A DNA stretch of 64,000 bases from positions 60,056 through 124,055 of the IMG/VR virus record IMGVR_UViG_3300010885_017276, one strand, 5' to 3'. This document shows, in pieces, positions 5,007 to 60,718 of this stretch; the stretch's first letter is position 1; the number at the start of each line of letters is the position of its first letter. The notes beneath the pieces are model-generated. The model worked only from the letters and a program-made list of their open reading frames with translations, was not told the DNA's origin and did not search any database. The translations under genes were made by a program, and so were the position numbers. Source of the stretch: a virus.

Positions 5007-5104
5007 TATACTTTTTTATAATATTAATGTATGAGTTCATAAGACCAAAACTAATTTGGCTATGGTATTATTTGATTAACTATAACGACAGAAAGAAAAA
5101 ATGA
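5003..5104 (+). CDS. 33-aa hydrophobic peptide (not in ORF track), paralog of 9702..9806
   Basis: MIYFFIILMYEFIRPKLIWLWYYLINYNDRKKK*; ATGA-coupled at both ends and has a paralog. Confidence 0.75.
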   Translation: MIYFFIILMYEFIRPKLIWLWYYLINYNDRKKK

Positions 5105-5334
5105 AACAAACAGCAGTAGAGTGGTATGAGAAAGAAATTAATTCTTTGATTGAGAAATATGAAGCAAAAGAAATTTCACAAAGAGATTTTATAACAATGA
5201 AACATAATCTTTTTTATGAAGCCAAAGAAATGGAAAAGCAGCAGATTATAGATGCTTATGATGATGGAAACTATGCCTATGGTATGGGTATAAAAGAACC
5301 TGAAGAATACTACAACGAAACATTTAAAGAATGA
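5101..5334 (+). CDS. MKQTAVEW-family small protein, copy 1
   Basis: MKQTAVEW...AKEMEKQQI...YYNETFK, shared with 5963..6175. Confidence 0.8.
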   Translation: MKQTAVEWYEKEINSLIEKYEAKEISQRDFITMKHNLFYEAKEMEKQQIIDAYDDGNYAYGMGIKEPEEYYNETFKE

Positions 5335-5861
5335 AACAACCGTGTAATGCTCATGCATACGAGCAAGAAAAAAAAGAACAGCAAAAGCAATTTTTAATTG
5401 ATATGATGGAAGAAGCTGAGAAGTTAGGATTGTATGATATCTTCAATGATGAAAAGAGACAAGGTGTAAAAGATTTGATTGATACACATAAACAAAGACT
5501 TGAAAAGTATTCTGAAAGATTTGACAATGATAAATCTGAAATAGGTAACTCAGATACTTGGGGTAAAAGAGCAGTTGAAGAACCTAAACAAACAGATGAA
5601 AATGGTAAACCTATTACCTATTGGGGTGGTTTAGCAGAACCTAAACAAGAAACACTTGAAGAGGCATCTTGGAAGTTTAACCCATTAAAAAAATTAGATG
5701 GAGAATTTTTAAGACACGCATTCAAAGAAGGTGCTAAATGGCAACAAGAAAGAATGTACAGTGATATGCAAGAGTATGCTACATTTTGTATTGAATGTGA
5801 TAGAAAAGAAATGTTTTTAATATTAGCTAAAGATTGGTTTGAAACATTTAAAAACAAATAA
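5331..5861 (+). CDS. Mosaic hypothetical protein (EPKQ repeats, ends ETFKNK)
   Basis: ATGA-coupled; ends in the shared junction repeat. Confidence 0.7.
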   Translation: MKQPCNAHAYEQEKKEQQKQFLIDMMEEAEKLGLYDIFNDEKRQGVKDLIDTHKQRLEKYSERFDNDKSEIGNSDTWGKRAVEEPKQTDENGKPITYWGGLAEPKQETLEEASWKFNPLKKLDGEFLRHAFKEGAKWQQERMYSDMQEYATFCIECDRKEMFLILAKDWFETFKNK

Positions 5862-5862
5862 G

Positions 5863-5961
5863 ATGATAGAAAAAATTGGGAATGGATTTGTATTAATACT
5901 TATTGGTCTGTTATTGGTTTGGGCAATAATAATGATTTTTGAACAATTTAAAAACAAATAA
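5863..5961 (+). CDS. 32-aa single-TM peptide (not in ORF track)
   Basis: MIEKIGNGFVLILIGLLLVWAIIMIFEQFKNK*; fills exactly the space between two junction repeats. Confidence 0.65.
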   Translation: MIEKIGNGFVLILIGLLLVWAIIMIFEQFKNK

Positions 5962-5962
5962 G

Positions 5963-6175
5963 ATGAAACAAACAGCAGTAGAATGGTTATTAAAGCAATT
6001 ACAAGAAAGTGGAATACCATTACTTAAAGATGAGCTTGAATTTATTGAACAAGCCAAAGAAATGGAGAAGCAACAGATTGAAGATACTTTTGAAATAGGT
6101 TATGTTAATGGAGCAGACCATAGTTGGTCAAATGATGGAGAAAAATACTACAACGAAACATTTAAAAACAAATAA
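5963..6175 (+). CDS. MKQTAVEW-family small protein, copy 2
   Basis: First 20 nt identical to 5101, so the true start is likely 5963 rather than 5939. Confidence 0.8.
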   Translation: MKQTAVEWLLKQLQESGIPLLKDELEFIEQAKEMEKQQIEDTFEIGYVNGADHSWSNDGEKYYNETFKNK

Positions 6176-18800: not shown

Positions 18801-21629
18801 AAGTAGGAAAAACTCTACTGCTGCTTCTCTACCCTCTTCCTTTTCGATCCTGTCTAACTCCTCTAAGAATTTAGGTGCAAGTTTCTCAACATCGATCTTA
18901 TCTCCACCAGACAAAGCTGCCTCGGCATTCTTCTTATCGATAAAGGTCTTGTCTATCTTGTTGATTTCAAAGGCTAATGTAGCTTCCTCTCTAGCATCAG
19001 GAGATAACCTAGTATCTAGTTTATAGAACTTACCTGAAGACTCGATAGTTACACCGTCCTCCGGCATACTAACTTCTATGATACCTTTCTTAAGACCCCC
19101 TAATTCATCGTGTAATGATTTAGCAGTTCTTCTTCTAAGGTTAATCCCATCTAGGTTATGCTGATCTTGGTACTTGTATCTAGGTAGACCTTTTTCTGTT
19201 TTTACCCTTGCCATCAATTGACCTAAGTCTGTAGACAAAAGCTTCAAGAAGGTTCTAGTATTTTTACTAATGCCTAGGTCATCATATTCCTTTTCACGGT
19301 TTTCGTAGTATTCGTCTGTAAAGGAACGCTCAATAAAGGTGTTGATTTCTTTTGTAACAGCATTCTTATATTCAAACTCAGCGTCCTTATCTGTGATAGG
19401 TGCTATAGTACCGTCCTCTATTTTCTTAGAGATTTGTTCTATTGACTCTTGGCTTCCAGAGTACTGTTTGTATAGAGTAGCTCTAGTTTTAAGAACTTCC
19501 TTTTCAAACTTTTCCCAATCGTACAAGCTAACCACGTAACCATTTCCTTCAGAAAATTTAGCTAAGTCCTTTTCAAGGAAGCCTAACTCTCTGATTTTTT
19601 GTTGCCATTTTTTTACCCTAGACATGTACTTGTGCTCTGCATCTAAATTCATATCCGAGATAACACTACCCAAAATGTTCAATAATGGATCGTGAGCATG
19701 GGTAATTTGACCAAACCAAGAGTACAACAACTGAGTGTCCTTAGTTGCGTTTTCTATACCTTTGATCAAGTCATCTCTGTATTTATCATCAATACTATGT
19801 CTGACCATCAAACGGTCAACAACTCTGTTTAAGATGTTATTTTCTGTATTAGCTACCTCCCCCTTTACATTTGAGATTTCATCTAGTACATTTTTGATAT
19901 CCTCTTCCAAAGAAGACAATTCCGGATCTTCTCTAACTAATACTTTTAGTCGCTCTAATACAGGAGCAATGTTTTCTTTTAGGTTGTATAATACAATACC
20001 TTCTTCGTTAGACAAGGTCTCGCCTCTTTTTTGAGCATCACGAATAGCACCGGATAAATACACAGCGTATCGTTTGGCTAATTTTATAAGTTCTAGTCCA
20101 GAGCTTTTTGTCAAGGCTTTGTCCAAAGCGTCATTTAACCTCTGTACCTCTGCTGTAGACCCCACACCTGCTCTTATCAAGGTTTTCTCTTGGTCTAGTA
20201 GTACTTGTACCAACAACTTAGCTACAGTGGCCTTAGAGTCCAACATGGAGTTACCACTAGACTGTCCTGTCTGATACATTCTAAACTTTTTAGTTTTAGT
20301 TTGTTCAAGGTTAAGGTATTTGTTTATGTCTTGGCTTAATATTAAGTCTTCAACCTTCAGGGTCAAGTTTTCTAGGTCTCTTTTGTAGTCATCGCTAATG
20401 TTCAAACTATTAAAGAATTTTACAAACATGTCGTATATCCTTTTCAGGATATTGGCTTGTAGTTCTGTTTTACCCTCTGTGCTGAATCTAGTTTTCAAAG
20501 ACTTAGCTAACTCTTTACCAAGTACCTCTCTTCTTACAAGGTTTTCAACTTCTTCAGCTGACATACCGGGGTTCTCCCTTGTGTATATCTCTCTGTAGTG
20601 TTGAGAATGCTCTTGGTAAGCCTCTGTCTTATTTATGTTTCTAAGTAGGTTTTCTATCTCTGCGTTATCCCAAGCTTCCACAATAAAGTGGCAAGTTTCC
20701 TCTGTCAGTAATTCTGGTGCAATAACACCGTCTTTGAATGCTACGACTTGGTTTGCAATATCTGCTAAAGCTTCGGCAGATGGCTCTACACCATTGCGGA
20801 TTTTGTAATTAGCAATGTAGTCTTGTATAGACATTACTTTTACCCCCATACCATTCAATAAATCTAAAAGCTTCAAGCTTAGATCTTTTTCTGATACAGT
20901 CGGTGGTTCTATTTTTGTACCTCCGGGCAAAGCTTCTTTTACTGCGTTGTTGATTGTCATCTGTAACGCAATGTCCTTCCCGAATCTTTTGGTCAATTCC
21001 TCTAAGGTGGAGCTTCTTATTTCTGAGATAGTTACAATTTCGCCATTAACCTCGATGCTGTTTACTGCATCTCTTAGTTCTATTCTGCCATCAGTGTGAA
21101 GGGTTATGTTTTTACTGTTTAGATTAGTTACTGCGGACTCTTTGATAAGTCTTTCATTAACCATCTGTAGTGCAGGGTCATTACCTTCTGCCTTATGGAA
21201 AGTCTTGCCGTCTTCTATTATCTTTTCATCAGACAATATGCCGTCTTTTATAAAGCTGTTGATAAACCCGTTGAAGGTGGACTCGTTAGTATTAGAAGAT
21301 ACAGACATAAAGTTTTGAAAACCCTTTCCTGTTTCTATACCAATTTCTATTAGCCCCCCTGTGGAGTTTGTCAATGCTTCTTTATAAGTCTGGAATACAC
21401 TTCCTGTATCAGATCTAAAGGTCAAGGTTGGCTCCTCTAATTCAGGTTGGGATATTTCTTTTTTTTGCATACTCTGAGAGTATACGTTTTTGAACACCTC
21501 TAGGGCCTCTTCTAAAGAAGATACGTGGGGTAATCTAGCTATTTGCTTAAACAGCCTACTTTCAACTCCTTTTGGAGTAAGAACTGTTTTTATACTACCC
21601 TCTTCGTTAAACTTTATTGTACAAGTCAT
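15876..21629 (-). CDS. Very large putative virion/ejected protein with degenerate zincin-like (EETCH) domain
   Basis: 1917 aa, mostly helical; LLTEETCHF...E motif; N-terminus similar to that of the 2571-aa protein; hydrophobic segment near the C-terminus. Confidence 0.7.
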   Translation of the reverse strand: MTCTIKFNEEGSIKTVLTPKGVESRLFKQIARLPHVSSLEEALEVFKNVYSQSMQKKEISQPELEEPTLTFRSDTGSVFQTYKEALTNSTGGLIEIGIETGKGFQNFMSVSSNTNESTFNGFINSFIKDGILSDEKIIEDGKTFHKAEGNDPALQMVNERLIKESAVTNLNSKNITLHTDGRIELRDAVNSIEVNGEIVTISEIRSSTLEELTKRFGKDIALQMTINNAVKEALPGGTKIEPPTVSEKDLSLKLLDLLNGMGVKVMSIQDYIANYKIRNGVEPSAEALADIANQVVAFKDGVIAPELLTEETCHFIVEAWDNAEIENLLRNINKTEAYQEHSQHYREIYTRENPGMSAEEVENLVRREVLGKELAKSLKTRFSTEGKTELQANILKRIYDMFVKFFNSLNISDDYKRDLENLTLKVEDLILSQDINKYLNLEQTKTKKFRMYQTGQSSGNSMLDSKATVAKLLVQVLLDQEKTLIRAGVGSTAEVQRLNDALDKALTKSSGLELIKLAKRYAVYLSGAIRDAQKRGETLSNEEGIVLYNLKENIAPVLERLKVLVREDPELSSLEEDIKNVLDEISNVKGEVANTENNILNRVVDRLMVRHSIDDKYRDDLIKGIENATKDTQLLYSWFGQITHAHDPLLNILGSVISDMNLDAEHKYMSRVKKWQQKIRELGFLEKDLAKFSEGNGYVVSLYDWEKFEKEVLKTRATLYKQYSGSQESIEQISKKIEDGTIAPITDKDAEFEYKNAVTKEINTFIERSFTDEYYENREKEYDDLGISKNTRTFLKLLSTDLGQLMARVKTEKGLPRYKYQDQHNLDGINLRRRTAKSLHDELGGLKKGIIEVSMPEDGVTIESSGKFYKLDTRLSPDAREEATLAFEINKIDKTFIDKKNAEAALSGGDKIDVEKLAPKFLEELDRIEKEEGREAAVEFFLLNTSLGFSSEFWNGFDTSETMMTYIDSYAQGPNAEQTWIDEIEKYKSQLEERKAILKRYQDSKNYTNTLASEIPAEVKEHILRLSEDIDRSYNLLYTLFKDVAQVGEEKEATTESTPNQAYYEALQDNRRNTTEEKLDFNYKNMTPENRKKVRNFSDILDDFASGRHVSDKQKELIKKISGINELSQILPSDIDGLKLKYAESKLAPYYRAFSPIGVSDFYKSLKSGNQSVTDLVTTLNERADIKISNNFSYYEMGEIKFKNENYKSDFEGGSRQPKLSKFLNPKFVDMFGPKLDSNNNPILKDGKIQPTRNQKMFDLYTEYMEFQKESLRSYGELGLQNLYLAPQISKTKFQKIQGLLQGKKGALKDMWLDATRFRVDEQAFGAEFQGESLIKKANIRIIPKYFLKKLEASTDVSEDLFNTSALFAQQAELYRAKKERFSEFAVLNDKVMNRVYPDGKAAEATNTYKMFKSYMDYNLFGVKELKQWRVNLPFLGQVDLTKIVNWLHNWVKNNSLALNVVVPLTSWITAETTLFLEKLIGQYVDKGSMAMANREFLKISTPAISEGLDINSKAKLSVMGEYFGAFDLNARFENSMYNKGVRTLSKSMYILHTAANFVPLSKAMLSQLYGHRVFGDKLVDFKKFEELQKLSDPNITMDSIKSNWEKLKDKTLYSYLDIKDNSVTYNYDKLAQDMGKTNGEEFQKEFRNMELGVVSKVKKLIERIDGQIKNEERTQLQRHVLGGFTMTHKAWLSIGTSNRFKRKHLNMQTGQFEEGSYLSVMRTFTNTINKGVASKSFMGAMTELKNMYKNADETERENIRRVLIESSFMTALFLLTLSISGWADDDDDSMLAQATAYMFERTANETSSSQFGILGEFYSSSKEPIVGLSKIENLASVQNLFDTSLVDRGRYSGLTNQEAYLIKNLVGAKSYFDLYSAKNLKSQRDAYNHFNNSESFVPIAMFINKESLEEDENSEE

Positions 21630-21686: not shown

Positions 21687-24600
21687 TTATTTACAGTTAA
21701 AATACTCATTATTAATTTGCTCAAGTTCTTTTTTAGTATAGTATTGTTTTGACTCTTTGAATATCTCCGGTGAGTTCTCTAGATGTTGGTATTGAGAGAA
21801 GTCGATGTCCGACAAAGGTTTTTCAATATCTGTCAATTTATAATCTGTGTCTACATCAGGTAACTTGTTATAAAACTTCACATTACCAAATTGGTAAATC
21901 ATCTCGAATACCCCCACAGGAGTTCTCACGAAGGTCTCAGTTTCATTTTTAGTAGCCATCACACCATCCTCTAAGTAAGTGTAATTACCCTTTAGTTTTT
22001 TGACACTTTCAGGATTGTTTACAACATCTTGTCTTTTCTCTTTTTGAGAATCTATGTACTCTCCGGCTTTTTCTTGAGACTCTAGACCTAATTTTAGAGT
22101 TCTTGATAATACATCGTATTGTGCCAATGATTCTTTGAACTCTTCGGGTAAACTCAAGATAGCTTCTGATTTGTTTATCTCGTCATTTGCTATTAACTCT
22201 ATACCTCTTTCAGTAACTGTGAAGTACTTGTTGTTTGTTTCTAGAATCCATTTGTTGAAGTCTTTTATAAAGTCATCTTTCAACATCTCCGGATCCATAG
22301 TCAAATCAGTCAAGCCTTGTGTGCTAACTTTTTTAGTATTAATTACTAAAGGAAAGCCAAAGTACATCTTGTACAACAACATCTTTTCTAGCAATTCTGA
22401 ATCTACTTGAAAATCAGGTATCTCTAGTTTAGAGATAGTCTTTGACACATAGTTTTTCAAGTCTTCCACAGAGGTTATATTTCCTGGCAGTAGGTCAACA
22501 TTTTCCATCATGCTGTCGTACATATCTTCTAAGGATTGCTCTGTAACTATTCTGTAAACACCGTCTTGTTTCTTAACTAGGCTGTGGTCTCTGAATAATT
22601 CATACTCTGTATTTTCTGCATCCAAGAACACATCCGACATGTTGTCTGTTATTATTAACTCCTTTGAAGGCTCAGTTATGTCAAACATTGCATTGTACAT
22701 GTCAGCAAAAGTAGACAAGGTTTGTTCTGAAGGTTCTACTAATACATCCTCCATAGCATTCAAAAAGTCAAGTACATCCTCTCTACTGTGAGTAATAGCT
22801 TTTGTTGCTAAGTCTCTCAGGTCAATGCCGTTTTTAGCAGCATCTTTCTTTATTTTATTCAAGATTTTGCCAATAGCATTTCTGCTCTCTTCCCAAGTCT
22901 CTTTTCTAATAGAGCTGTTAAGGAAATCAATATTTTCAGACATACTTCCATTGTAATCATCTGTGATAGTGTTTGCAATACTACCTATGGTGCTTGGTAA
23001 TTTATCAACAAGTTCCCCGTTTATTACAGTCTTTACTGGGACTGATTTTGTGGTTTTGTTTAAGTCGTCTACCAATGCTTTGAACTCTTTGTCTTGAGCA
23101 TATCTTTCAGCCAATACCCCATCTAAATTAGCAGGGATTTCTTCTGGTGCTACATCTGATACAGCATCTGCTATCTCTCGTTCTATCTCAAAAGGATTAG
23201 AGGATCTTTGTTTACCAAGTGAGGTTAATTCAGAAGACATAGGGATTACAAAAATAGGGTTATACTCTACAGAAAACTCTTCTGTGTTTCTAAGCTTTAA
23301 TAGAGTCTCTCTTATATTTCTTTGAATATCCGGAGAGTTCAATATCATATCTATCTCGTAATCATTATACATCTTACTTCTTTCTAGCTTCATTCTGCTG
23401 AATGTTACAACACCCTTTGTGCTTAAAGCCTTCATCAGACTTGTGTATAGATCCTTTGAATTAGTTAATCCAAACCCTAACATAGCGTTTTGTACATCCA
23501 TTACCTCTTCATTTTCAAGAGCTTCTGTTTTAGCAGAGTTAAACTGTAAAACTGTGCTTGCATCAGGTTCACCGTTTTTATCAAAACCTTTTGGTGAAAC
23601 AGGTCTAGCTTTTCTAATCATTTCAAACCCTGATGTATTTCGGAATCCTAGAGAGTTATAAAAGTCTCCTAGTTTATCTTCGTCTGTAATCCCACCATCT
23701 CTTGAACTTACTGCTAAGTATACATCTTTTCCAATTGAATCTGTATACTTCAAGAAAGCTTCTGCTGCTTTTCTAGCGTTTCCGTTTCCTTTATTATCAG
23801 ACTCTAGTAATTGAAGTTCTATCTGTCCTGTGTCTTCTCCGGTGATAGGGTTTATTCTATCAGCAGCAAACACCCTAGCACCATTCATATCTACGACTGG
23901 TTTTCTAACATTGCTACTACTAGTAGTAGTAGTTTGAACTTTCGGCTCTTCTACTCTATTATCTTCTACTGAGTTAGTTCCGTATTTTTCTTGAACTTCA
24001 GATAAAAGACCTGACCTTTGAGCTGATGTATAGTACCCTTTAACTATATCATTATTACTAGCTGTCACAATGTGGTCTAAAACTGTTATGCTGAACTTTT
24101 CTAATTTTCTAGAGATATCTTTTACCGAAGAAAAATTATCTTGATTACCGTAAAATATAACACTTTTAGCAATTCCAAACTCTCCTATAAAGCTAGTCAA
24201 TTCTTCGTACTCAATACCATCTTGAAAAACGTAGTTTCCAATAATTTTATTATTTTGGTCTAAAATAAGAGCTGCATTTTTAGGCATAGCTGAAAATCTA
24301 AACTGTTGTATGACATTAGCGGAATCTTCAGCTCCAGCCACTTTACCTAGAGGCTCTGATAAAATCTCTTGCTCATTAAGGGTATAAGTAGTTAAGTTTT
24401 CCTTTTTACCTTCTGTTTCAACTCTGGCTACACCTTTTGCTGATGTTAGTCCAAACTCATCTAATATAGTATATTGTTTACTATATGTATCCATTATAAC
24501 ATGCTCCAAAGAAATGTTTAATTCTTTTAGTCCAGAAGCCACTCTTGAAGTAATTTCTGAATCAGCCGCACTTGGGTTTAAGTTACCACTTGGGTGATTA

Positions 24601-27600
24601 TGTACAAGATACACTTTTTTAGATTTGAATTTATTAACCCCCGAAAGAACTAGTCCGGGATCAATAACTGTACCTGTAGATCCCCCAACACTTAAAAATT
24701 GGATATGTGATTTACCTTTAGCATCCGTATGAACTGCAAATGCATGCTCTACAGATTTGTTTTCTAGTAAGCTCATAATCTCAGCTACATCAGCAGCATT
24801 CTTTACTCTAGTTGTACCAGTAAATTGTAAATCTTTGGATTTATTCCAAATACCTTTTACTGAACGAAATACACCGTTGATTTTATCTCCCTCCCATTGT
24901 ATTCCATCTCTTGAGTCGTAATCCACATCTCCAGATTCTGATAGATAGGATACTCCACTTTCGGTTGTTGCTGTTGTTGATCTTCCTTCATATTCTTTTG
25001 CTCTTTTTGGTTTTGATAAAGCAGATTTTTTGTTTTTACTATCTAATAGCATTTTACTATAGATATCTTTTATTCCAGGGTTTAATTCGTTGATGTCTCC
25101 AAAATAAGCTATTGCATCTTTTATAACTTCAAAGAACCAATCTTTTAGTCTTTTGAATATACCGTCAATATCTCCATTTAAGTTGGCACCTTCATATATG
25201 TATCTTTCAGCACCTTTTGCAAAAGCTTCTCTAAATTGTTTTGTGCCTTTTTTATGTCCGCTCCAATCTTCTACAATTTTAACTTCTTGTGTTGTTAATA
25301 CATCTTCATATTTATGTGCTAACTCATGTACAGGAGTTGTTACATCTGCATTATTTTTATCTAATAATATTAATGTAGATTCCTCTGTTCTTACAATAGC
25401 CCCTCTTCTATCTTGTTTGTCTATAGATACATCAAATCTATCGCTAGATACATCAAACCTAGTTGATGAAAGAAGATTTGGTACCTTAACGGCACTATTA
25501 ACAATCCTTAATTTTTTATCTATTTTAGTAGTTGGAGGTAATAGTTCGTTTTCAGGAATCTCAATTGTACAGTTGTCAAATTGTAAATCATACAAAAAAG
25601 TTACATTTTTTCCTATGTTTAATACTCTATTATTTTTATTTATATCAGAGTCTTGTATTACTATATCAGCTTTTATAACGGAGTTATCTGGGATATCTAT
25701 CACTGCAATAGCTCTATCACTAGATATAAATCTAACAATAAAATCTGCATTTTCTGGTATAAAGTCTATATCTGTATTTTCAAAGTTGACAGTTCGGAGA
25801 AAATATGCATCTTTTATTTTTTCCATACCGCCACACTTTTCAAAAGTAGTAGTCGAGCCAAATAATGTACCTCTGCCAAAATTGCTATCTCCAAAATATA
25901 TACTTTGGAAGTCTACAGTATTGTAAAACACAACATTATTCCCAACATTAAATTCCTTTATTTTTTCAAAAATCGCAAAACCTTCTTTATCAGCACCTTC
26001 ACCAGGTAACATACCTATTTTAGCTTCCGATTCTATATCTAATTTAATAAGATTTTCTAAAGCAATCCTATTTATTTTTGCCCCTTTAGATATTCTTAAT
26101 GCAGTATTTGAATTACTCCAGAGTCCCGTACCCTTAAAACTAAGATCATCTATTTGTACATCAGGCTCTATAACAAGTAATCCTCTACCATTATGAGAAC
26201 TAAATTTTTTAAGTTTAGTTCCTTTTTCTATATTAAATTTTCCGTCAAAAGTTATATCATGTAGTATAACTTCTTCTAGACTAGAACTTTTACCTATAGT
26301 AAAATTTTCAATAATGGGAGCATTTGTTAAAATTAATCTTTTAATTTGAGCCCCATTAGTTATATTAAGATCATTTCTTAGATGCACTTGATTAAGAAAT
26401 AATTCTGATATCTTAGCTGTAGACGGGATACTAAAGCTTTTAGGTAACCCATCTAATCCTGGAAAATCAGCTATATTAAGAATTTTAAAATCTACATTAT
26501 CTGGTATAGTAAACCCCTCTTCAAAATCACAAAGGCTTAATTGTATAGTTGAACTATTTTTCATACCATTTGGAATTGCCCCTTTTGGTAAGTTTGACTC
26601 AGAAATTGTGATACCCATCCTAGAATTACTATCATTTGGCAATTGAAAACCCTTGTTGAGATAGCATTTGTTAATATATACTGATTCTAACATATTATTT
26701 TCCAACAAAGTAAAATCTTCAAAAGTGGTGTTAATTGCTGAAAAACCACAACCTGCATATTTAGGTATACTAAAACCTTTTTCTATTTTTGAACCTGCTA
26801 AAAATATCTCCCCTATGCTAGAGGGGATTACAAAATCTTTTGATATTTTAGAATCATCAATTCTTAGCGCACCATCTATTCTAGTACTTTTAGGTATTGT
26901 AGAATCTGTTATTGGGATTGTTGAAATGCTTAACCCTCTTTCAAAATGTAAATTTTCTAAGAATTTAACACCTTTCGCCTTAAAAGATCGATCATATTGG
27001 AAAACATCTTTAAAGACACATCCATTACCAATAACTAGATTTCCAGATATATTAGATCCATCAAGAGAGAAATCTGTTAGTACAGAGTTATCTTCTATAA
27101 TAAGATTCTTAAAATATGAATTTTCAATTTTAATAATCGCCTCACCTAATTTTGGTAATATAAAATCATCCTTGAATACAACATTTTCTAACCCAAAAAA
27201 CCCGTTTACTTTTCCAGAATTTCCAAGTTTTAGTTTTAAATCTTTTGAATTTTTTACTCTAAGTGCCTCAGTTTCATAATTGTCTCCTATTTCAAAAGAG
27301 GCCACATTTTTAATATTAATTGTTTTTTTGGAATAAAAGTTTTTTCCTATTTTTATAGATGACATAAGATTCTTAAATTTATCAGAAGTCTCAAACTCTA
27401 TATCTGTTGCACTTACATTATCACCAATAATAATTTCAGAAGCATTGTATATAGTTATATCACCTGTTACTTTTAAACCATTTGGTAAAGTAACTATATC
27501 TTTTTCATCCGAAGTATAGATAGTAAGATCACCAATTATAAGTTGATTTTCTTGTATGTCAAATCCAGTTATTGTATTTACACTAGTATACTCTCTGTTA

Positions 27601-29402
27601 CTGCTTATTTTGGAGTATATTTTGTATTTTTCGTTTACGTCTGGTAATTTATTTTTATCAAAGTCTGCTCTTAGGTCTCTATACTCTGATTGTTTTGCGG
27701 AATCATAAGTTTCTAATCTTAAACCCATAGTATCAATATAATCTTGTAGATCTTGTTTACTAAAATCTTCATTATTAACTAACTTATGGTATATTCTAGA
27801 TGTCTTTATATTATTCGCATACTTAAGACCGTTTTGTATTTTTGGCAGTTTTTTGTATGCCTCGTCTGCCTGCTCTTTGGATAAAGCCTGTCCTGCATCT
27901 GTGCCTTTTAGTTCGGATATATCGCTACCATCGTATCTAATAGTAATGGTAGGTTCTAATGTTTTGTCTAAGAATAGATAAAAATCTCCTTTTGGTAAAT
28001 AGCTAGAAGCCATACCCCCACCAGTACACCAAGGGTTTGAAGACATAACTTTAGCTACCTTTTTACTAACTAATGTTAAGGCTTTTATATCACCTTCTTC
28101 ACTAGATTTATTGAACTTTACCCAATAGCCATTCTCAGTCTCTTCTTCAATTCTGTCTTTGATTAAATCCCAAGTTTCTTCTCTTGTGATAAAAGCTTTA
28201 TCTGTGTGTTTGTCAATAAGTTTTATTGGATGTGTATCACTTCCGTTTTTTAAGTCCTGGTATACATTTGGCAATACCATAGAAGATAGTTCTTGGTGAT
28301 TACCCACAGTCATTGAATTTCTTTTTGCTTTCTCTCCGGGAATTGTTCTTGTTACATTACCGTTGTCATCTAAAACCTCTATGTCTTTAGCTACGTTACC
28401 CTTCAAGGTAAGAGCAACCATCATATATTTAAACTCTGCTGAATAATCAGAAGATGGTATTATATACTCCAAAGAAGAGACTAAATTAGCTCTTTGTATA
28501 CCCTGTAAGTTTTTTATATTTTCAGATATAGCATAGCTGTTACCATCTATAAGAGCTTGTATGGACTCTTTTTCTGCTTCTGTTACAGCTCTTTTTAAAG
28601 AGGACTGCAAGAAACTAGGAGATAGTTCTTGTATGTAAAAGTCATTTGTGTTTGCAGCTCTATCTTTAATCTCTAGAAGTCTTCTATTAATTTCAGCTGT
28701 TATTTTTTCTTGGTTACCTAAAGAAGATAATTTTGTAGTATAGCCTAAGAATCCAAAAGTTTCTTCTAAGTCTAATAAAGAGGACATGATGTAATTATCT
28801 TTAGCTATACCTAAGTTTTTGATATATTTAGGCTGTACTGTTTGGTAATCTACTGTGGTGCCTTCTTCTGTTACCCCGGAAAAGTCTTTGATTAATTGAT
28901 CAGATAAACCAGATAGTTCTGAAATAGAGTTTGGCACATCTTTCAAGAACTCTTGCACATTGCTTACAGTTCTTATAGCCATACTTCTCTTTAACTGCTC
29001 TACAGTTTTTCCTAGTCTCTTTGCAATATTAGTATAGATTATATTTGCAACTTTTTCTAGTGTATCTGCTTGGTCATCAGAGATTTTCTCTACTTTTTTA
29101 AGTTCGTTAGCTATAGATGTATCCCAGTTACCTTTGTCTTCTAAAACTTCCTCCTGCACAGGAGTTAGTGCAGATGGTTCTACTGAAGATACGATACCTT
29201 GATTAAAAGAGTTTATTTTGTCTTGTGATATAGACTTAAAATCCTCCAGTTCAGTCAAGGCATAAAGATTTAAGGCGGCATTTTTATTACCGCCTGTCAT
29301 CTCTGCTAATGTATCAAATAATTTACTTCTGTTTCCGTCTGGTGTTTGTACAAAGTCAATTTCACCTTTTTCATCTCTGAAAATTCTACAGTTTAATGCC
29401 AT
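21687..29402 (-). CDS. Polyvalent protein: WCT domain, beta-solenoid, HExxH metallopeptidase-like, RadC/JAB, degenerate JAB, GNAT
   Basis: PWCTGG..GDFY; about 700 aa of solenoid repeats; VHELAH; HNHPSGNLNPSAAD; LDHIV; KGNGNA...FYNSLGF. Confidence 0.8.
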   Translation of the reverse strand: MALNCRIFRDEKGEIDFVQTPDGNRSKLFDTLAEMTGGNKNAALNLYALTELEDFKSISQDKINSFNQGIVSSVEPSALTPVQEEVLEDKGNWDTSIANELKKVEKISDDQADTLEKVANIIYTNIAKRLGKTVEQLKRSMAIRTVSNVQEFLKDVPNSISELSGLSDQLIKDFSGVTEEGTTVDYQTVQPKYIKNLGIAKDNYIMSSLLDLEETFGFLGYTTKLSSLGNQEKITAEINRRLLEIKDRAANTNDFYIQELSPSFLQSSLKRAVTEAEKESIQALIDGNSYAISENIKNLQGIQRANLVSSLEYIIPSSDYSAEFKYMMVALTLKGNVAKDIEVLDDNGNVTRTIPGEKAKRNSMTVGNHQELSSMVLPNVYQDLKNGSDTHPIKLIDKHTDKAFITREETWDLIKDRIEEETENGYWVKFNKSSEEGDIKALTLVSKKVAKVMSSNPWCTGGGMASSYLPKGDFYLFLDKTLEPTITIRYDGSDISELKGTDAGQALSKEQADEAYKKLPKIQNGLKYANNIKTSRIYHKLVNNEDFSKQDLQDYIDTMGLRLETYDSAKQSEYRDLRADFDKNKLPDVNEKYKIYSKISSNREYTSVNTITGFDIQENQLIIGDLTIYTSDEKDIVTLPNGLKVTGDITIYNASEIIIGDNVSATDIEFETSDKFKNLMSSIKIGKNFYSKKTINIKNVASFEIGDNYETEALRVKNSKDLKLKLGNSGKVNGFFGLENVVFKDDFILPKLGEAIIKIENSYFKNLIIEDNSVLTDFSLDGSNISGNLVIGNGCVFKDVFQYDRSFKAKGVKFLENLHFERGLSISTIPITDSTIPKSTRIDGALRIDDSKISKDFVIPSSIGEIFLAGSKIEKGFSIPKYAGCGFSAINTTFEDFTLLENNMLESVYINKCYLNKGFQLPNDSNSRMGITISESNLPKGAIPNGMKNSSTIQLSLCDFEEGFTIPDNVDFKILNIADFPGLDGLPKSFSIPSTAKISELFLNQVHLRNDLNITNGAQIKRLILTNAPIIENFTIGKSSSLEEVILHDITFDGKFNIEKGTKLKKFSSHNGRGLLVIEPDVQIDDLSFKGTGLWSNSNTALRISKGAKINRIALENLIKLDIESEAKIGMLPGEGADKEGFAIFEKIKEFNVGNNVVFYNTVDFQSIYFGDSNFGRGTLFGSTTTFEKCGGMEKIKDAYFLRTVNFENTDIDFIPENADFIVRFISSDRAIAVIDIPDNSVIKADIVIQDSDINKNNRVLNIGKNVTFLYDLQFDNCTIEIPENELLPPTTKIDKKLRIVNSAVKVPNLLSSTRFDVSSDRFDVSIDKQDRRGAIVRTEESTLILLDKNNADVTTPVHELAHKYEDVLTTQEVKIVEDWSGHKKGTKQFREAFAKGAERYIYEGANLNGDIDGIFKRLKDWFFEVIKDAIAYFGDINELNPGIKDIYSKMLLDSKNKKSALSKPKRAKEYEGRSTTATTESGVSYLSESGDVDYDSRDGIQWEGDKINGVFRSVKGIWNKSKDLQFTGTTRVKNAADVAEIMSLLENKSVEHAFAVHTDAKGKSHIQFLSVGGSTGTVIDPGLVLSGVNKFKSKKVYLVHNHPSGNLNPSAADSEITSRVASGLKELNISLEHVIMDTYSKQYTILDEFGLTSAKGVARVETEGKKENLTTYTLNEQEILSEPLGKVAGAEDSANVIQQFRFSAMPKNAALILDQNNKIIGNYVFQDGIEYEELTSFIGEFGIAKSVIFYGNQDNFSSVKDISRKLEKFSITVLDHIVTASNNDIVKGYYTSAQRSGLLSEVQEKYGTNSVEDNRVEEPKVQTTTTSSSNVRKPVVDMNGARVFAADRINPITGEDTGQIELQLLESDNKGNGNARKAAEAFLKYTDSIGKDVYLAVSSRDGGITDEDKLGDFYNSLGFRNTSGFEMIRKARPVSPKGFDKNGEPDASTVLQFNSAKTEALENEEVMDVQNAMLGFGLTNSKDLYTSLMKALSTKGVVTFSRMKLERSKMYNDYEIDMILNSPDIQRNIRETLLKLRNTEEFSVEYNPIFVIPMSSELTSLGKQRSSNPFEIEREIADAVSDVAPEEIPANLDGVLAERYAQDKEFKALVDDLNKTTKSVPVKTVINGELVDKLPSTIGSIANTITDDYNGSMSENIDFLNSSIRKETWEESRNAIGKILNKIKKDAAKNGIDLRDLATKAITHSREDVLDFLNAMEDVLVEPSEQTLSTFADMYNAMFDITEPSKELIITDNMSDVFLDAENTEYELFRDHSLVKKQDGVYRIVTEQSLEDMYDSMMENVDLLPGNITSVEDLKNYVSKTISKLEIPDFQVDSELLEKMLLYKMYFGFPLVINTKKVSTQGLTDLTMDPEMLKDDFIKDFNKWILETNNKYFTVTERGIELIANDEINKSEAILSLPEEFKESLAQYDVLSRTLKLGLESQEKAGEYIDSQKEKRQDVVNNPESVKKLKGNYTYLEDGVMATKNETETFVRTPVGVFEMIYQFGNVKFYNKLPDVDTDYKLTDIEKPLSDIDFSQYQHLENSPEIFKESKQYYTKKELEQINNEYFNCK

Positions 29403-29474: not shown

Positions 29475-32400
29475 TTAACAATCCTCTAGATCATCTATAA
29501 TAGTTTCAACTTTAGCTCTGTATTCTGGACTTACTTTTACTAACTCTCTTAGCAAGGCTACAACCTTTGGATGATCCAAGAAGTCGTACTCTTTTGCTGT
29601 CAAAGTATTATTTATAAACTTATCTAGTATCTCCGAAGCTTTTTCATCTGTAAAGTTTATTCTCCAGTCTTTTACTGAACTAGTAAGTCCGTTTGGGCTC
29701 AAATCAATAATAGGTTTAGGTGAAGACAAAGGATTGTCTGTCATGTCTACAGCTATAGAAGCATCGTTTACTAGGTCCTCTGCTGAATAGGCTTGACTCA
29801 TCCATTCCTTTACATCTGCTGTTTGTTCTACCTTATTTAGGTCAGCTATAGCTTGTTGTAAGTTTCTAGTTATGTTTCCTTCTTGGTCAAACAGTGTTTG
29901 ATTCTCCATATCTAAGAAATGTAAATCATACTTTGTTGTAGAAAGTCCGTTGTCAACTAGCATTTGGTTTAGCTCTAAAGACAAGGATGCTAAGTTTTTA
30001 CCATCTCCTTTTTGGAACTCATCAACCATACTATTCAAGAACGCATCTCCTATGTTATTATTTGTCTTTTTAAGATTCAAGGGGAAAGCAAACAAATACT
30101 GTCCTTGTCTCATTACAACTACAGGAGTTCCGTTCTTATTCAAGAATTTACTAACGTAGTCCTTTCTAACTTTTGTAGTCTTACCGTCCTTAAGCACAAG
30201 CTTTCCGTTTTGTATGTAACCATAGGTTACTACTTTTTTAGGCTCTATCTCAAAGTATTTTATTTTACCATCTTCATACACAAAGTTTGGTGTTCCTAGA
30301 AGTAGGTGTTTAACTTTTGTTTGTATCGGTAACTCTAAATTAGTACCACTTACAGCTACCCCTCCTTCAAGAGCCAATTTTACTGCGTTTAATGCAGCCA
30401 GTCTAACTCTCAAAAATCCAGGACTGTCTGAAATGTCATAGTTAGCCTTCAGATCGCTTAATTTATTTCCTCGGTAGTCTGTGGCATTTATCTTGATATT
30501 GTCCATTAGATCTTTACCTAGCTCTTCCTCAGTCTTTGCATTAGGTACACCGTCTTCAATATCTTGTAATCCTTGTTGGTAACCTTCGATTAATATCTGG
30601 TTGTACTCATTCTCAAGGTCTACTGAAAATAACACAGGTTCTCCCGGTAGCATTTCGTATAGTTGGCTTGGTGTATAGGTATTAGAGTCCTTGAAGTCTG
30701 TACTAAGATTCTTGTTAGTTTTTAGATCATACACAACCCCATATCCGCCATTGTTATATAGCTTTATGTTGTTGGTCTGTAGACTAGCTTGGTTAAATAT
30801 GTTTTGGTATTCTGCCTTACTTTTGAAAAGTAGTCTACCACCTTTGTCTATTCTAATTACTGCTGAACTACCATCTTCTAATACCACTGTGAACTTAGCA
30901 CCAACCTTGGCAAGAGTCTCTAGGTCTGTCAAAGACAAGTTATCCTTAGAGCTTTTTACAATCTCCTTGTTGCCTTTGGTTTCTACTTGTTCGTATCTTA
31001 TAGTATCTAAGGCTAGTCTTTTTAATAACCCGGCCAAAGTCAAGTGTGATACAGAGGTTCCATTTTTGGTTTGAGATACAAACACATTTTCGTAAGTCTG
31101 AAGAATCTCTCCATTTCTTATAGGTTCCCCTTCATCTGTTATTGAAGGATTTGGGTCTACCGCTGTTTGTAGTTCTACGTCTGTAAGTTCAACATCTGGT
31201 ATTACTGGAACGGTCTGTGACCTTGCAATATCTTGCATTATCATTTCTGCTATGGATACTCCATCCTTACTTCCGTAAGCTTCTAGTAATCTCCAATTTG
31301 CAAATTTCTCGTTAAGTTCTTGCAGTCTTAATACCTCTTCTTTTGACAAAGATACCAAGTTTTTTCCTAACTGTGGTAAGGTACTATTTCCATAAGGACT
31401 CTTAAATGAGATAGTTTTGTTGTTTATTTTTGGATCATTTATAGCTCTCTCGGCCAAAGCTTGAAACTCTAACATCTCAGCTTCAGACGGCATTTTAGGA
31501 GTGGTTTCTGTACCGTAGTACTCCATTAAATAGGGGCTATTCTTGATAAGGTTGGCAATAAAATCTTTTATAGAAGTTTTTACCTCTGCTACATTAGTAG
31601 ACTCTAGTTGATATCTTTTATTAATCTCATCTATCTTAGCTTGCTTTTCCTTTTCTAGCTTTTCTATTTCTTTTGCATTGCCTTCTGCTTCACTTTGTGC
31701 ATTAGTAGCAGCAGTTGCTGCAGCCGCATTAGCTTGTTTTAAGCTATCTAATAAAGGAGTGATTAATTTATCATACCTGTCATATATTTCATTATACTGG
31801 TCTAGGACAGCAGTAGTCATCATGGTCTTATCTACCTTACCATTAATAACTTTATAGTCTTCTATATTAGGTATTTTAGAAAGCATTTCGTTTTGCTCCT
31901 GCTCTCTTAAATCTGCTATTTGCTGTTGTATATTTTGAGGAGTGGCTGCTATATTAGACAATTCGCTACTTAATAAAGCTAAGGTACTATTAACGTGATC
32001 ATAGAACTCATTGGAGTCAGTATTTTTACCAGCCGGTTTTGTAGGTAAGTTCATAGTATCGTTAAAAGCTTCTAAATCTGCTTTACCATCACTTAAAAAT
32101 CCTATTCCGTCCTTTAATCTACCGTTACCGTTATTCTCTCTGCTTTCAATAGTCCCTATTCCCTCATTAAGTATCTTAGAAAGCTTCTCAAATAATTGGA
32201 ATCCGTAACTATTATTTATTTGTTCTTCTGAACCTTTGTTTATCCACCCTTTCTCTACTCCAATCCCAAATACTGCATACCAATTGCCGGCTTTTACATT
32301 TTTCTTACCTGCTTGTCCAGTACTGATATAAAAAGGTATGTTGTATTTACCTATTTTCATCATTACCATTACTCTATCAGAGTAATCGACTACGTTGTAT

Positions 32401-38397: not shown

Positions 38398-40335
38398 TTA
38401 TTTCTTTTTAAATCTGCCTCCAAATTTAATTGCTGGATTTTTTGCTTTTGCCTTAGATTTTTTAGTAGTATCAGGTTCGTACTGGCTTTGAACATATCTT
38501 GTATTATCTTGTCCTGAAAGTATACTAGGATCATACTCAGTTGCATACCCATTTCCAGTAAATTGTACATTTGGATTATATGCGTTTTGAGCATTCATCA
38601 TATTTACATATTTCCAATTGTTTGTTTGATCTCTAAATCGTTGATTTATCATATTTTGATAATCATTCTCCCAATTACCTAATCCTGTAAGAGTTCTCTG
38701 TTCGTAACTTAATGCGTTTTGGCCTCTATACAAATCTTGAGTGTCTGCAGCTTTTGTATTATATATATCTGCTGCATTTTGTGCTTGTGCATTATATCTG
38801 TTAGTATCTGAGATTTGCTTGTTTGTTCCAGTTATCTGATTTGCAATCAAACCTATACTAGATGCGGCTTTTTGTTCTGGTGACAATCCACTAAAGTCTA
38901 CAGCTTGTACAGCTCTATCTATCTCTGATATACCCTGTGTTGCAGAAATTTTAGCAGGATCTATTTGTCCTATTTTAGTATCTATTTTTGTAGATGGGTG
39001 CCATTGAGGCATGCTTATAGGTCTTATTGGTACACCTAAAACTCCCATAACTTTCTGCGTTTTACCTGCTGTAAAAGGTGCTACGTCCGCTGCTGCTTCT
39101 TCTTCTTCCGGTGTTGCCGCTGGCTCCTCTTGCTGTTTAACAGCTGTCATAGCTTGTAGTACTGCATCGTGGAATGGTCCTGGTTCAGAGTCTGTAGCAA
39201 GCTTTTTAATTTCATTATATCTAGCTTCTCCTGTTAATCCCTTCAGCTGCTCTTGAATATTTGGAGCAAACTTACCTTTATTTTCAGTTAACCACTGGTC
39301 TATCTTTTTAACTCTTTCTTGGTCTTTCCAAGTAGCATCTACTAATGGTAACCATGCTCTTTTATAATTAGTGCCTTGCCATATAGGATTCTTATTTATC
39401 TCTACAGGGGTGTAAGGTAAGGTTTTGACTGTTCTAGGATTATTAGTAAAGTCAGTTCTGTTTGTTGAGTTTAAAATTATATCTTTATTTGCATCCCATA
39501 GTTGGCTATAGTCCATTCCTAATGGAGATGAGCTCAAAGGGTTTCCAAATCTATCCACTGTATCTTTAGCGTCTACTACTCCATCCATATTCATATCTCC
39601 TCTGAGATATGTGCCTGCGGCTTGATACATTGGTAAACCAGCTAACTCAGCAGCTCTTTGTGGAGATATGCCATGTTTAGCCGCTAAAGAGCCTATGTAG
39701 CCACCGTTTGCTTTTTCATACTCTTCTCCCTCTTCTTGCTTTTTAGACATCTCTTGAATTTGAAAAACTACATTAAATAGTTGTTCTCTTTCTTTTTCAA
39801 TCGGTTTCTTTTTTTCAGCTAGCTCGTACAACTTCTTGTTTATGAAGTCAAGATTCAAGTTAGATGTATTTTTGTCTTTTACATCTTCTTTTTGCTTTTT
39901 CATAATCTCCATAAACTCTTCTAACTTATCGTTAATTTCGTCTAGGCCTGATTTTTTGTTGTATTTGTCTATAACTGTTGCGTAGGTATCATTTGGTCTT
40001 ACTGGAAGCCCAATGATCTTTTCCATTCTTTTGGCGGCATCTGCTCCAACTTTTAAGTGGTCACTAATTATCTTAGTCCCCTCCTCTAGCTTAACTGGCA
40101 TACCTCCCTTTTCGTGAGTTTTACCTTCTGCTTTTCTTACACCTCTAGAATCAAATATGTATTCCCCACCCTCAATTTCAGCATTAGGTTCTACTTCAGA
40201 CTCCTCTTCGTTTAAGGGGAATTGGTATTCCCCGGTCAACTCTTTGAACATTTGGTCTTTAGTACCACCGTCTTTGAAAAATAGGTTTTCAAATATTTTT
40301 TTTGGTATAGATATCTTATTTGTACTGGATGTCAT
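38398..40335 (-). CDS. Putative cargo protein with AEIEGGE...HEKGG domain and xxGG motifs
   Basis: NAEIEGGEY, GKTHEKGG, FKDGG, KANGG, MYQAAG and terminal KFGG. Confidence 0.7.
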   Translation of the reverse strand: MTSSTNKISIPKKIFENLFFKDGGTKDQMFKELTGEYQFPLNEEESEVEPNAEIEGGEYIFDSRGVRKAEGKTHEKGGMPVKLEEGTKIISDHLKVGADAAKRMEKIIGLPVRPNDTYATVIDKYNKKSGLDEINDKLEEFMEIMKKQKEDVKDKNTSNLNLDFINKKLYELAEKKKPIEKEREQLFNVVFQIQEMSKKQEEGEEYEKANGGYIGSLAAKHGISPQRAAELAGLPMYQAAGTYLRGDMNMDGVVDAKDTVDRFGNPLSSSPLGMDYSQLWDANKDIILNSTNRTDFTNNPRTVKTLPYTPVEINKNPIWQGTNYKRAWLPLVDATWKDQERVKKIDQWLTENKGKFAPNIQEQLKGLTGEARYNEIKKLATDSEPGPFHDAVLQAMTAVKQQEEPAATPEEEEAAADVAPFTAGKTQKVMGVLGVPIRPISMPQWHPSTKIDTKIGQIDPAKISATQGISEIDRAVQAVDFSGLSPEQKAASSIGLIANQITGTNKQISDTNRYNAQAQNAADIYNTKAADTQDLYRGQNALSYEQRTLTGLGNWENDYQNMINQRFRDQTNNWKYVNMMNAQNAYNPNVQFTGNGYATEYDPSILSGQDNTRYVQSQYEPDTTKKSKAKAKNPAIKFGGRFKKK

Positions 40336-42946: not shown

Positions 42947-42952
42947 TTTTAT

Positions 42953-42982
42953 TTTGTATTTATAATATTCTTTGTATCTTTG
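42953..42982 (+). promoter_or_regulatory. Bacteroidota-type promoter for the antisense membrane gene
   Basis: TTTG-N18-TATCTTTG, 15 nt before ATG 42998. Confidence 0.7.
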
Positions 42983-42997
42983 TAAAAAATTTAAACT

Positions 42998-43498
42998 ATG
43001 GAAAATATTAATTATTGGGTTGAACACTCAAATCTTTTTTTTCATCAGATCTTTATGATTGTGATGGGTGCTCTTTATGCTATGTCTTTTGTTTTAGGTG
43101 TGTCTTATAAAGCAGTTAATATATATTGCTACTTTGTTTTTTACCCTGCTTCATTCTCTATGTTTTTGAAAAGTAAGGTTAAATACCTAATTCTGTCTTC
43201 TACTTTACTGTTCTTTTTTATTCCGGGGTTTGAATCACTATCCTCTAAATTTTTTGATGATTGTGTTATATTTTTAAACCACTCTGCTAAAGTTACACAT
43301 TCAAATTACATTAACATGTCTGTTTATCTTTGTGTTGTTTTACCCCTGCTTTTATATGTGCCATTTTTGTTATGGAGGTTTGGTAAAAAAATGTTCTTAA
43401 AAATTTTAATAACTTTTACATTAATTTGTTTTTGCTATTTACTATTTATTTATCCATTTTTTAAGCCTCTACTTGTAACGCTGCTTGATTTGCTCTAG
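42998..43498 (+). CDS. Polytopic membrane protein inserted antisense in the virion gene block
   Basis: Four to five hydrophobic segments, its own promoter, very T-rich DNA. Confidence 0.75.
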   Translation: MENINYWVEHSNLFFHQIFMIVMGALYAMSFVLGVSYKAVNIYCYFVFYPASFSMFLKSKVKYLILSSTLLFFFIPGFESLSSKFFDDCVIFLNHSAKVTHSNYINMSVYLCVVLPLLLYVPFLLWRFGKKMFLKILITFTLICFCYLLFIYPFFKPLLVTLLDLL

Positions 43499-60171: not shown

Positions 60172-60176
60172 GTCTT

Positions 60177-60716: not shown

Positions 60717-60718
60717 AT

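Follow-up and report, generated by a model that had tools for sequence, protein, structure and literature searches.

Exchangeable multi-domain cargo between conserved ends in a putative polyvalent virion protein of a phage related to Cellulophaga phages

Why would a phage encode, among its late genes, a single chain of 2571 amino acids (aa) in which several effector-type domains follow one another? The question is raised by P0001, the product of a large open reading frame (ORF) of a marine phage. The ORF lies in a stretch of 64,000 nucleotides (hereafter the window) taken from the end of IMG/VR record IMGVR_UViG_3300010885_017276, which at 124,055 bp is complete and carries direct terminal repeats. 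The initial annotation, made from the letters alone, described P0001 as a polyvalent protein carrying an effector payload within its N-terminal domain; scripted motif location recovered the ORF and every listed motif in place. Our preferred reading, which we consider probable, is that P0001 is a polyvalent protein of phage type whose scaffold is hitherto undescribed; the protein would be packaged and delivered with the DNA, and its cargo would act early in the host. The scaffold consists of a leader of ~57 aa at the N-terminus and a C-terminal domain of ~630 aa belonging to the gp038 family (C-domain), and the site between them would be a recombinational hot spot accepting cassettes of enzyme domains. 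The cassette here comprises, in order, a domain of ~500 aa (domain X), a repeat spacer, a HExxH module, a RadC/JAB domain that is intact and a second RadC-like fold that is degenerate, and is followed by an AcrVA5-like mini-acetyltransferase abutting the C-domain.

A search with the last 632 residues of P0001 retrieved 45 other proteins of 1522-2807 aa, whose alignment coverage on P0001 was sharply bimodal. Residues 1-60 were aligned in 38-40 of these relatives and residues 1836-2571 in 44-45, and most of the intervening sequence found a counterpart in P0003 alone (Table 1). Conserved ends and a variable middle were precisely what the initial annotation had anticipated for orthologs. Together with P0001, the 46 proteins display 25 cargo architectures. 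Cargo-less members also exist: P0063 (695 aa) has the motif RGEPS immediately next to its leader, and the C-domain of P0059 (683 aa) begins as early as residue 55. In forms of 822-830 aa, a GNAT domain alone separates the leader from the C-domain. We gathered 202 sequences, a sample biased towards close relatives, and among the 168 that are full-length the C-domain starts at or before residue 80 in 37, at residues 81-360 in 52 and beyond residue 360 in 79. The conserved ends, the variable middle and the cargo-less members, where nothing separates leader and GEP motif, uphold the insertion reading. The cargo does lie between the N-terminal part and the NGEP motif, as first proposed, but not inside the N-terminal domain, since it follows a self-contained leader of ~57 aa.

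Comparison of the closest relatives revealed cargo and scaffold with separate histories. P0002 is 92% identical to P0001 in the C-terminal module and 77% identical in the leader, with unrelated cargo, and P0002 and P0003 share identical first 79 residues followed by different cargo. Between P0003 and P0001 the cargo is 71-98% identical and the C-domain only 61-89%, and P0003 contains an extra insert of 192 aa just before the GNAT domain. At the level of these alignments, cassette exchange between close relatives is established. The exchange extends to adjacent genes. A metagenome scan for related loci yielded 3 loci, and a search with the C-domain of P0001 alone or with P0059 found none. Locus L012 encodes an 825-aa member in the same gene order as the P0001 locus, and the 2001-aa-type protein encoded upstream of it (L012:3-3242, +) is 39% identical to residues 1119-1288 of P0027 (E 4e-29). 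Since this upstream protein carries modules that elsewhere are cargo of the middle protein, cargo moves from one neighbouring giant to another.

The gene coding for P0001 lies within a run of minus-strand late genes in which the other giant products measure 1917, 2001, 2181 and 2704 aa. Megablast against 50,697 phage records returned no DNA-level match to the region. At the protein level, the nearest isolates are the Cellulophaga phages phi17:2 and phi4:1 (genus Lightbulbvirus), with 25% identity over residues 1972-2570 of P0001. Protein comparison of the window genes with phi17:2 showed that gene order is kept, and residues 2055-2566 of P0001 match residues 17-513 of phi17:2 gp038, a 'virion structural protein' of 517 aa (BLASTP of the C-terminal part, E 2.5e-25). 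Synteny and this match together identify P0001 as a protein of the gp038 type, enlarged by about 2000 residues. The phi17:2 record annotates gp036, gp038 and gp040-043 as virion, structural or tail proteins, and PHROG 'virion structural protein' families match neighbours of P0001. The coordinates of all features are collected in Table 1.

Table 1. Features of P0001 and of neighbouring genes in the window, with the number of relatives aligned to segments of P0001
Feature	Residues	Position in window	Strand	Remark
P0001, putative polyvalent virion-type protein, whole ORF		21687..29402	-	ATG start, 2571 aa
Leader domain	1-60	29223..29402	-	Aligned in 38-40/45 relatives; Cys5 at 29388-29390
Segment of P0001	18-60			40/45 relatives aligned
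Domain X, including NPWCTGGG	~100-600	27603..29105	-	Conserved block in P0003, P0203, P0204
Segment of P0001	110-1747			1/45 relatives aligned (P0003)
AT-rich repeat/solenoid-like spacer	~611-1325	25428..27572	-	GC 0.29, weak LbH match
HExxH (zincin-like) module	~1328-1454	25041..25421	-	phrog_9880 match at 1328-1452
RadC-like JAB domain	1534-1639	24486..24803	-	Pfam PF04002 E 1.4e-18; intact HNHPSG..PS.AD
Second RadC/JAB-like fold without motif	1699-1784	24051..24308	-	Structural match to 2qlc_A
Mini-GNAT, AcrVA5-like fold	1833-1931	23610..23906	-	First part of conserved C-terminal module
Segment of P0001	1836-1940			44/45 relatives aligned
C-terminal scaffold domain	1940-2571	21690..23585	-	gp038 homolog; ends ..YFNCK, Cys2570 at 21693-21695
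Segment of P0001	1941-2570			45/45 relatives aligned
Downstream giant neighbour, 1917 aa		15876..21629	-	gp036 homolog; PHROG 'virion structural protein'
Leader of 1917-aa neighbour	1-57	21459-21629	-	hhalign
Upstream giant neighbour, 2001 aa		29475..35480	-	gp039 homolog
950-aa protein				gp040 counterpart in phi17:2
645-aa protein		38398-40335	-	With 903-aa protein, gp041 counterpart in phi17:2
903-aa protein		40316-43027	-	With 645-aa protein, gp041 counterpart in phi17:2
2181-aa protein (N-terminal tail lysozyme)		43469-50014	-	gp042 counterpart in phi17:2
353-aa ORF		50094-51155	-	
2704-aa adhesin-like protein		51178-59292	-	gp043 counterpart in phi17:2
531-aa ORF		60928-62523	-	

The leader motif C...TPDG..S.LF occupies residues 5-29 (29316-29390). 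In an AlphaFold2 (AF2) model of the minimal relative P0059 (predicted local distance difference test [pLDDT] 87.4, predicted template modelling score 0.78), the leader is predicted to fold, between residues 7 and 57, into three helices and two short strands, residues 11-60 being modelled at pLDDT 86-89. A hidden Markov model (HMM) of the leader, run against the 891 six-frame ORFs of the genome, matched P0001 and its 1917-aa neighbour only (E 4.4e-4), and hhalign aligned the two leaders over 54 columns with 97.1% probability (E 5.2e-11), the alignment ending with the leader. The 1917-aa protein had been taken as a paralog in which an EEP motif corresponds to NGEP. This correspondence was not borne out: the profile match stops at about residue 57 and EEP remains unaligned to NGEP, so the neighbour's paralogy is confined to the leader, and the cargo begins beyond that domain. 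We also considered the N-terminal M-x-x-x-C as a lipobox and dropped it, as no signal peptide precedes it. P0012, P0020 and one downstream neighbour (L012:6730-8667, +) begin with a different N-terminus (MACKY.., MCKYTIK..) in place of the usual leader, and this too has a cysteine, at residue 2-3.

The opposite end of the scaffold opens with DKNGEP at residues 1941-1946 (23565-23582). An exhaustive profile-free search found the C-domain in 345 representative clusters at E<=1e-3, and the family has no Pfam model. Its model matched the phi17:2 structural protein in BFVD (E 5e-28). The C-domain tolerates further insertions, of 106-1240 aa, in 22 members (P0085, P0086, P0089, P0100, P0115 and 17 others); these cluster near P0001 positions ~2040-2180 and ~2300-2390, which constitute additional cargo sites. 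A C-terminal extension of more than 30 aa was found in one member only. The P0059 model (m0c6dce018365) also matches giant proteins of crAss-like phages weakly in BFVD (E 5e-4 to 2e-3, template modelling score [TM] about 0.2), as well as a structural protein of phage phi14:2, again weakly. Judging from these models, the scaffold, the crAss-like giants and the phi14:2 virion RNA polymerase (vRNAP) may be distantly linked as carrier domains in different phages of the Bacteroidota.

P0001 joins several effector-type domains in one chain of 2571 aa: a RadC domain, a second RadC-like fold, a GNAT fold, a HExxH module and domain X. RadC gave the only Pfam match above threshold in P0001, even when nine segments were scanned at E<=10, and curated PolyVal or LPD families were not found in the protein itself. 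The RadC identification is secure: PF04002 scored 67.4 bits against a gathering cut-off of 22.1, the PDB RadC entry 2qlc matched the domain with an E value of 2e-9, and the motif HNHPSGNLNPSAAD at residues 1601-1614 (24561-24602) retains an intact H-x-H-P-x-G ... S-x-x-D metal motif. For the following domains we relied in part on an AF2 model of residues 1320-1960, which is poor overall (mean pLDDT 55.7) and usable in parts. In this model, the second JAB-like copy (pLDDT 56-71) superimposes on 2qlc_A with a Z score of 8.8 and a root-mean-square deviation (rmsd) of 2.2 over 85 aligned residues (VIA-align), and the Pfam RadC model matches it weakly (E 0.018 over 26 residues). The modelled fold and the absence of the motif agree with the initial annotation; sequence similarity between the two copies is not significant (BLAST E 0.93). 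FYGNQDN stands in place of HxHPxG..S..D, so the second copy is at most an inactive one.

The HELAH sequence, first read as the signature of an MPTase domain, is present at residues 1359-1363 (25314-25328). Polyvalent MPTases are described in PMC5512222, in its account of this family, as bearing HExxH on one helix and a glutamate ligand on the conserved helix that follows, with a sheet of three strands preceding both. In P0001, HELAH lies on a modelled helix and a candidate third ligand, Glu1392, on the second helix after it (model 69-85), the helices reaching pLDDT 76-92 and the sheet before HELAH being modelled at pLDDT below 50. Neither the whole genome, searched at E<=10, nor the segment scans yielded a match to the MPTase-PolyVal family itself (PF18818), and the module is therefore classed only as HExxH zincin-like. 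With hhalign, it aligned to a HEFGH module of the relatives over 27 columns (87% probability, E 3.9e-6; reversed control, 0.5%), a module present in 46 gathered relatives (43 distinct sequences).

Domain X, which contains NPWCTGGG at residues 456-463 (28014-28037), had been singled out as a WCT domain. The block is genuinely conserved, and outside P0001 it occurs only in P0003 (79-92% identity) and in two polyvalent-type proteins, P0203 (55%) and P0204 (45%), which also share the HExxH module with P0001; P0203 in addition contains a Kinase-PolyVal domain (90.8 bits). A segment scan gave no Pfam match to domain X. An Atlas lead pointed to PcfJ (score 0.89, 32% of cluster members carrying PcfJ), whose Cys motif may be similar, and failed the HMM test, PF14284 having no match at E<=10. 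Between domain X and the HExxH module lies the region first interpreted as an AT-rich beta-solenoid. Its AT-richness is plain, with a GC content of 0.29 in 26001-28000 against 0.33-0.40 in other 2-kb bins of the window, further low-GC bins being 4001-6000 (0.305), 24001-26000 (0.321) and 60001-62000 (0.322). For the fold we obtained weak leads: LbH_EIF2B at E 8.6e-4 (19.7 bits against a cut-off of 54), autocorrelation at lags 6/11/22, and Atlas scores of 0.78-0.82 to pentapeptide, beta-helix and leucine-rich repeat clusters. An HMM of the 23-aa repeats of P0204 did not match the region. Between P0001 and P0003 it is 27-50% identical, compared to 71-98% in the flanking domains; judged by these identities it is fast-evolving and behaves like a spacer between domains, and its earlier designation as effector payload is not supported.

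Relatives bring other cargo. Among 22 representatives, Pfam detected ART-PolyVal (76 bits), LPD23, RadC and PolyA_pol with HD, and 13 of the 22 gave no family at all.

The GNAT domain, by comparison, does not belong to the variable payload in which the initial annotation had included it. It was aligned in 44 of the 45 near relatives and is the sole extra domain of the 822-830-aa forms; by its alignment pattern this mini-GNAT is near-constant, adjoins the C-domain and lies outside the variable payload. Its identity rests on the modelled fold (pLDDT 70-89), which superimposes on AcrVA5, an anti-CRISPR acetyltransferase (6iuf_B), with a Z score of 12.8 and an rmsd of 2.2 A over 90 of 95 residues (VIA-align), a further 40 GNAT entries matching at Z 8.6-9.9. 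Pfam GNAT models did not match the domain in P0001 or P0051, and a GNAT profile found nothing below E 0.029 among PDB sequences. An alternative GNAT type in P0048 and P0055 passes the Acetyltransf_1 threshold (26.5 and 26.0 bits against 20.7), and hhalign aligned the two types with 60% probability (E 8.7e-5) after removal of the NGEP motif that they share. The acetyl-CoA motif A of GNATs reads [Q/R]-x-x-G-x-[G/A]. P0001 has NKGNGNA at residues 1870-1876 (within 23754-23795), that is K1871-G-N-G1874-N-A1876, with R in place of K in orthologs.

Like AcrVA5, the domain is a minimal GNAT of ~95 residues, and it keeps a [K/R]-x-x-G-x-A motif. It differs in sequence (16% identity, with a sequence-profile match of only E 0.095) and in being fused in a 2571-aa protein, AcrVA5 being free-standing; the likeness does not imply that P0001 targets Cas12a. 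The mini-GNAT may be an AcrVA5-like modifier of a host protein, and its fixed place beside the scaffold suggests that infection in this group routinely opens with the acetylation of a host target.

A further regularity concerns cysteines. We examined 194 family members beginning with M and found a cysteine within the last 1-4 residues in 192 and within the first 3-6 residues in 168, the 26 apparent N-terminal exceptions being miscalled starts or fragments. The chance of a cysteine in the last four residues is 0.6%. Both terminal cysteines are present in 166 members, and 160 of these have exactly two cysteines in 600-2600 residues. P0001 has nine: Cys5, Cys2570 and seven in the cargo, six of which lie in the spacer. 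The rule extends to the genes on either side. The single cysteine of the 2001-aa upstream protein is its last residue (29478-29480), and the 1917-aa downstream protein contains Cys3 (21621-21623) and Cys313. Across the related loci compared (L001-L014 and the window), the upstream protein ends in cysteine in 12/12 with a visible end (9 distinct sequences), as its sole cysteine in 11/12, and the downstream protein starts with M-x-C in 15/15 (M-C in L012), as its sole cysteine in 14/15. Cysteines are absent from the 950-, 645-, 903- and 2181-aa proteins of the window; the internal-looking giants have 0-2, compared to 37 in the adhesin-like 2704-aa protein. P0203 (1296 aa, on a 7.3-kb contig) has a leader-like MSNKC start, Kinase-PolyVal, domain X, a helical spacer and the HExxH module, and ends in ..DLNC; terminal-cysteine handles thus occur without the C-terminal scaffold. 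A literature search by title and abstract, which is not proof of absence, returned nothing relevant on disulfides, or on cysteines at the termini, of internal virion or ejection proteins.

The placing of four thiols at complementary termini, across three proteins in a row, suggests a head-to-tail tether. We tentatively propose, as a possibility that we rate well short of likely, that the 2001-, 2571- and 1917-aa giants are joined through their terminal cysteines into one train of ~6,500 residues. Either disulfides, formed while the virion is oxidised, or a single metal site to which all four thiols contribute would provide the links, and each later protein would use its ~57-aa leader to recognise the preceding protein's C-terminal tail. 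On ejection, the members of such a train would pass through the phage tail in the order of their genes and come apart once in the reducing cytoplasm, thereby releasing the cargo; all other cysteines would be selected against, so that wrong links are prevented. Strictly terminal cysteines offer a simple, falsifiable clue to how several giant proteins might be organised for ejection.

The conserved termini also bear on whether P0001 is processed before or during packaging, so that only the scaffold or single cargo domains reach the virion, with the HExxH module acting as the processing peptidase. P0001 does contain such a module, 46 of the gathered relatives have a related one, and Iyer et al., where they treat these modules, propose autoprocessing and cite DdrB of phage P1, for which such processing is reported (PMC5512222). 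However, N4 vRNAP, which has such a module, is packaged unprocessed by the same account (PMC5512222), and both termini with their cysteines are conserved together in 166/194 members, which argues that the intact chain matters at some stage. We consider processing of this kind unlikely.

It appears less likely still that P0001 is not packaged at all and is instead a late-expressed cytoplasmic multi-enzyme or assembly factor encoded among structural genes. The T7 IVP-A (internal virion protein A) family, as portrayed in the relevant passages of PMC4819975, is acetyltransferase-like and sits in such modules yet is not retained in virions. Against this, the scaffold homolog of phi17:2 is annotated as a virion structural protein, the leader is common to a neighbour belonging to a PHROG 'virion structural protein' family, and ART-PolyVal and LPD23, found as cargo in relatives, are types described for delivered polyvalent proteins. 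That P0001 is an external tail fibre or adhesin, with the repeat region as a receptor-binding or depolymerase-type beta-helix and the variable middle as a host-range switch, would fit the ~700-aa solenoid-like region, the high variability of the middle and the position of the gene in a tail and structural block, but is very improbable, since the relatives have enzymes of intracellular type in their middles (ADP-ribosyltransferase, CCA-adding enzyme with HD, RadC), most relatives lack the solenoid (only 1/45 aligned to residues 110-1747) and the family is nearly cysteine-free (160/166 with exactly two, compared to 37 in the adhesin-like neighbour).

We return to delivery with the DNA. By analogy with known systems, we infer that the scaffold would take P0001 into the virion together with its two giant neighbours and that the protein would then enter the host with the DNA. 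The cargo would act at an early stage and might, for instance, acetylate or cleave host targets, be they defence components or nucleic acids, with a putative anti-defence effect, and the HExxH module may cut the chain into working parts. Several points weigh against this proposal. The presence of P0001, or of any cargo-bearing member, in virions is an inference only, and the label 'virion structural protein' was given in the phi17:2 record to a homolog that lacks cargo and is 25% identical. No solved relative of the C-domain emerged from Foldseek against the PDB at E<=1e-3, and a C-domain profile found nothing among PDB sequences. The best Foldseek match of the P0059 model was the phi14:2 vRNAP 6vr4 (E 0.013, TM 0.19); the best VIA Z score was only 7.9, to a generic helical bundle, with 6vr4_B at Z 6.2 and rmsd 9.4. 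The packaging role thus derives from context only. Within the cargo, RadC alone passes a curated threshold, the HExxH module fails MPTase-PolyVal, and domain X and the spacer are without assigned function. RadC is moreover reported, in the passages of PMC5512222 that deal with it, solely in those polyvalent proteins that belong to conjugative elements and not in phage ones. Finally, the mini-GNAT could instead be an assembly factor, by analogy with T7 IVP-A.

Other genes of the block show expansions and splits of their own. The 2181-aa protein contains an N-terminal tail lysozyme, a peptidoglycan-binding domain and a DUF5754 match just under the Pfam cut-off. Its first ~140 residues alone match the 739-aa gp042 of phi17:2, and it too looks expanded, by ~1400 aa of sequence without assigned family. 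Besides its 37 cysteines, the 2704-aa protein shows repeats of the DUF285 and DUF11 families. The 353-aa ORF that follows its gene matches the C-terminal end of phi17:2 gp043, as the 2704-aa protein also matches gp043, so the gene appears split in this phage. DUF285-type PHROG families as in the 2704-aa protein recur in the 531-aa ORF. The 903- and 645-aa ORFs correspond to the N- and C-terminal parts, respectively, of the 895-aa gp041; they overlap by 20 bases and share this one counterpart, indicating a split or expanded gene.

Our comparisons define a large carrier family without prior annotation, which marine phages of flavobacteria type appear to employ for interchangeable cassettes of enzymes. 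The precisely mapped insertion site and the natural cargo-less, one-domain and multi-domain forms make the delivery hypothesis testable with cultured Cellulophaga phages. The cassettes also provide a catalogue of candidate counter-defence domains, 13/22 representative relatives being without a Pfam family.

Among known systems, P0001 most resembles the polyvalent proteins treated in PMC5512222. As characterised there, these combine disparate enzymatic domains, from 2 to 15 in number, in one chain, in phages lie among late or virion genes, and are presumed to be delivered with DNA; P0001 likewise combines HExxH, RadC and GNAT domains and lies among late and virion genes, its orthologs carry ART-PolyVal and LPD23, and P0203 carries Kinase-PolyVal. 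It differs from the carriers named in that source in that its own consists of the leader and the ~630-aa C-domain rather than a MuF, portal or N4-type protein, in that the cargo is internal, between two conserved ends, rather than appended, and in the presence of RadC, which is said there to be absent from phage-type proteins. The words 'Cellulophaga', 'solenoid', 'WCT' and 'cysteine' do not occur in the main text of PMC5512222.

MuF polymorphic toxins of temperate phages, as presented by Jamet et al. (2017, PMC5576092), likewise couple a conserved virion-associated carrier to highly variable effectors swapped between related phages. In the arrangement outlined there, however, MuF is N-terminal and the toxin C-terminal, usually as one domain with an immunity gene, whereas P0001 has both ends conserved and up to ~1750 aa of multi-domain cargo in the middle; no MuF-type (SPP1 gp7-like) Pfam match was found in P0001 or in the 22 relatives.

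Podovirus ejection proteins form the third comparison. Internal virion proteins of podoviruses are described in the pertinent passages of Hardies et al. (2016, PMC4819975) as hosting lysozyme and cytoplasm-destined domains, for example N4 gp50 vRNAP in an IVP-D homolog and the T7 gp16 lysozyme; these proteins are likewise large, and an acetyltransferase-family element is associated with their module. The P0001 gene block resembles such a module in its very large virion-protein genes, one of them with an N-terminal lysozyme. Foldseek, VIA and profile searches gave no PDB sequence match or clear fold match to the ejection proteins of T7, N4 or P22. P0001 probably varies the known polyvalent-protein theme with a new carrier, and is marked by a terminal-cysteine rule.

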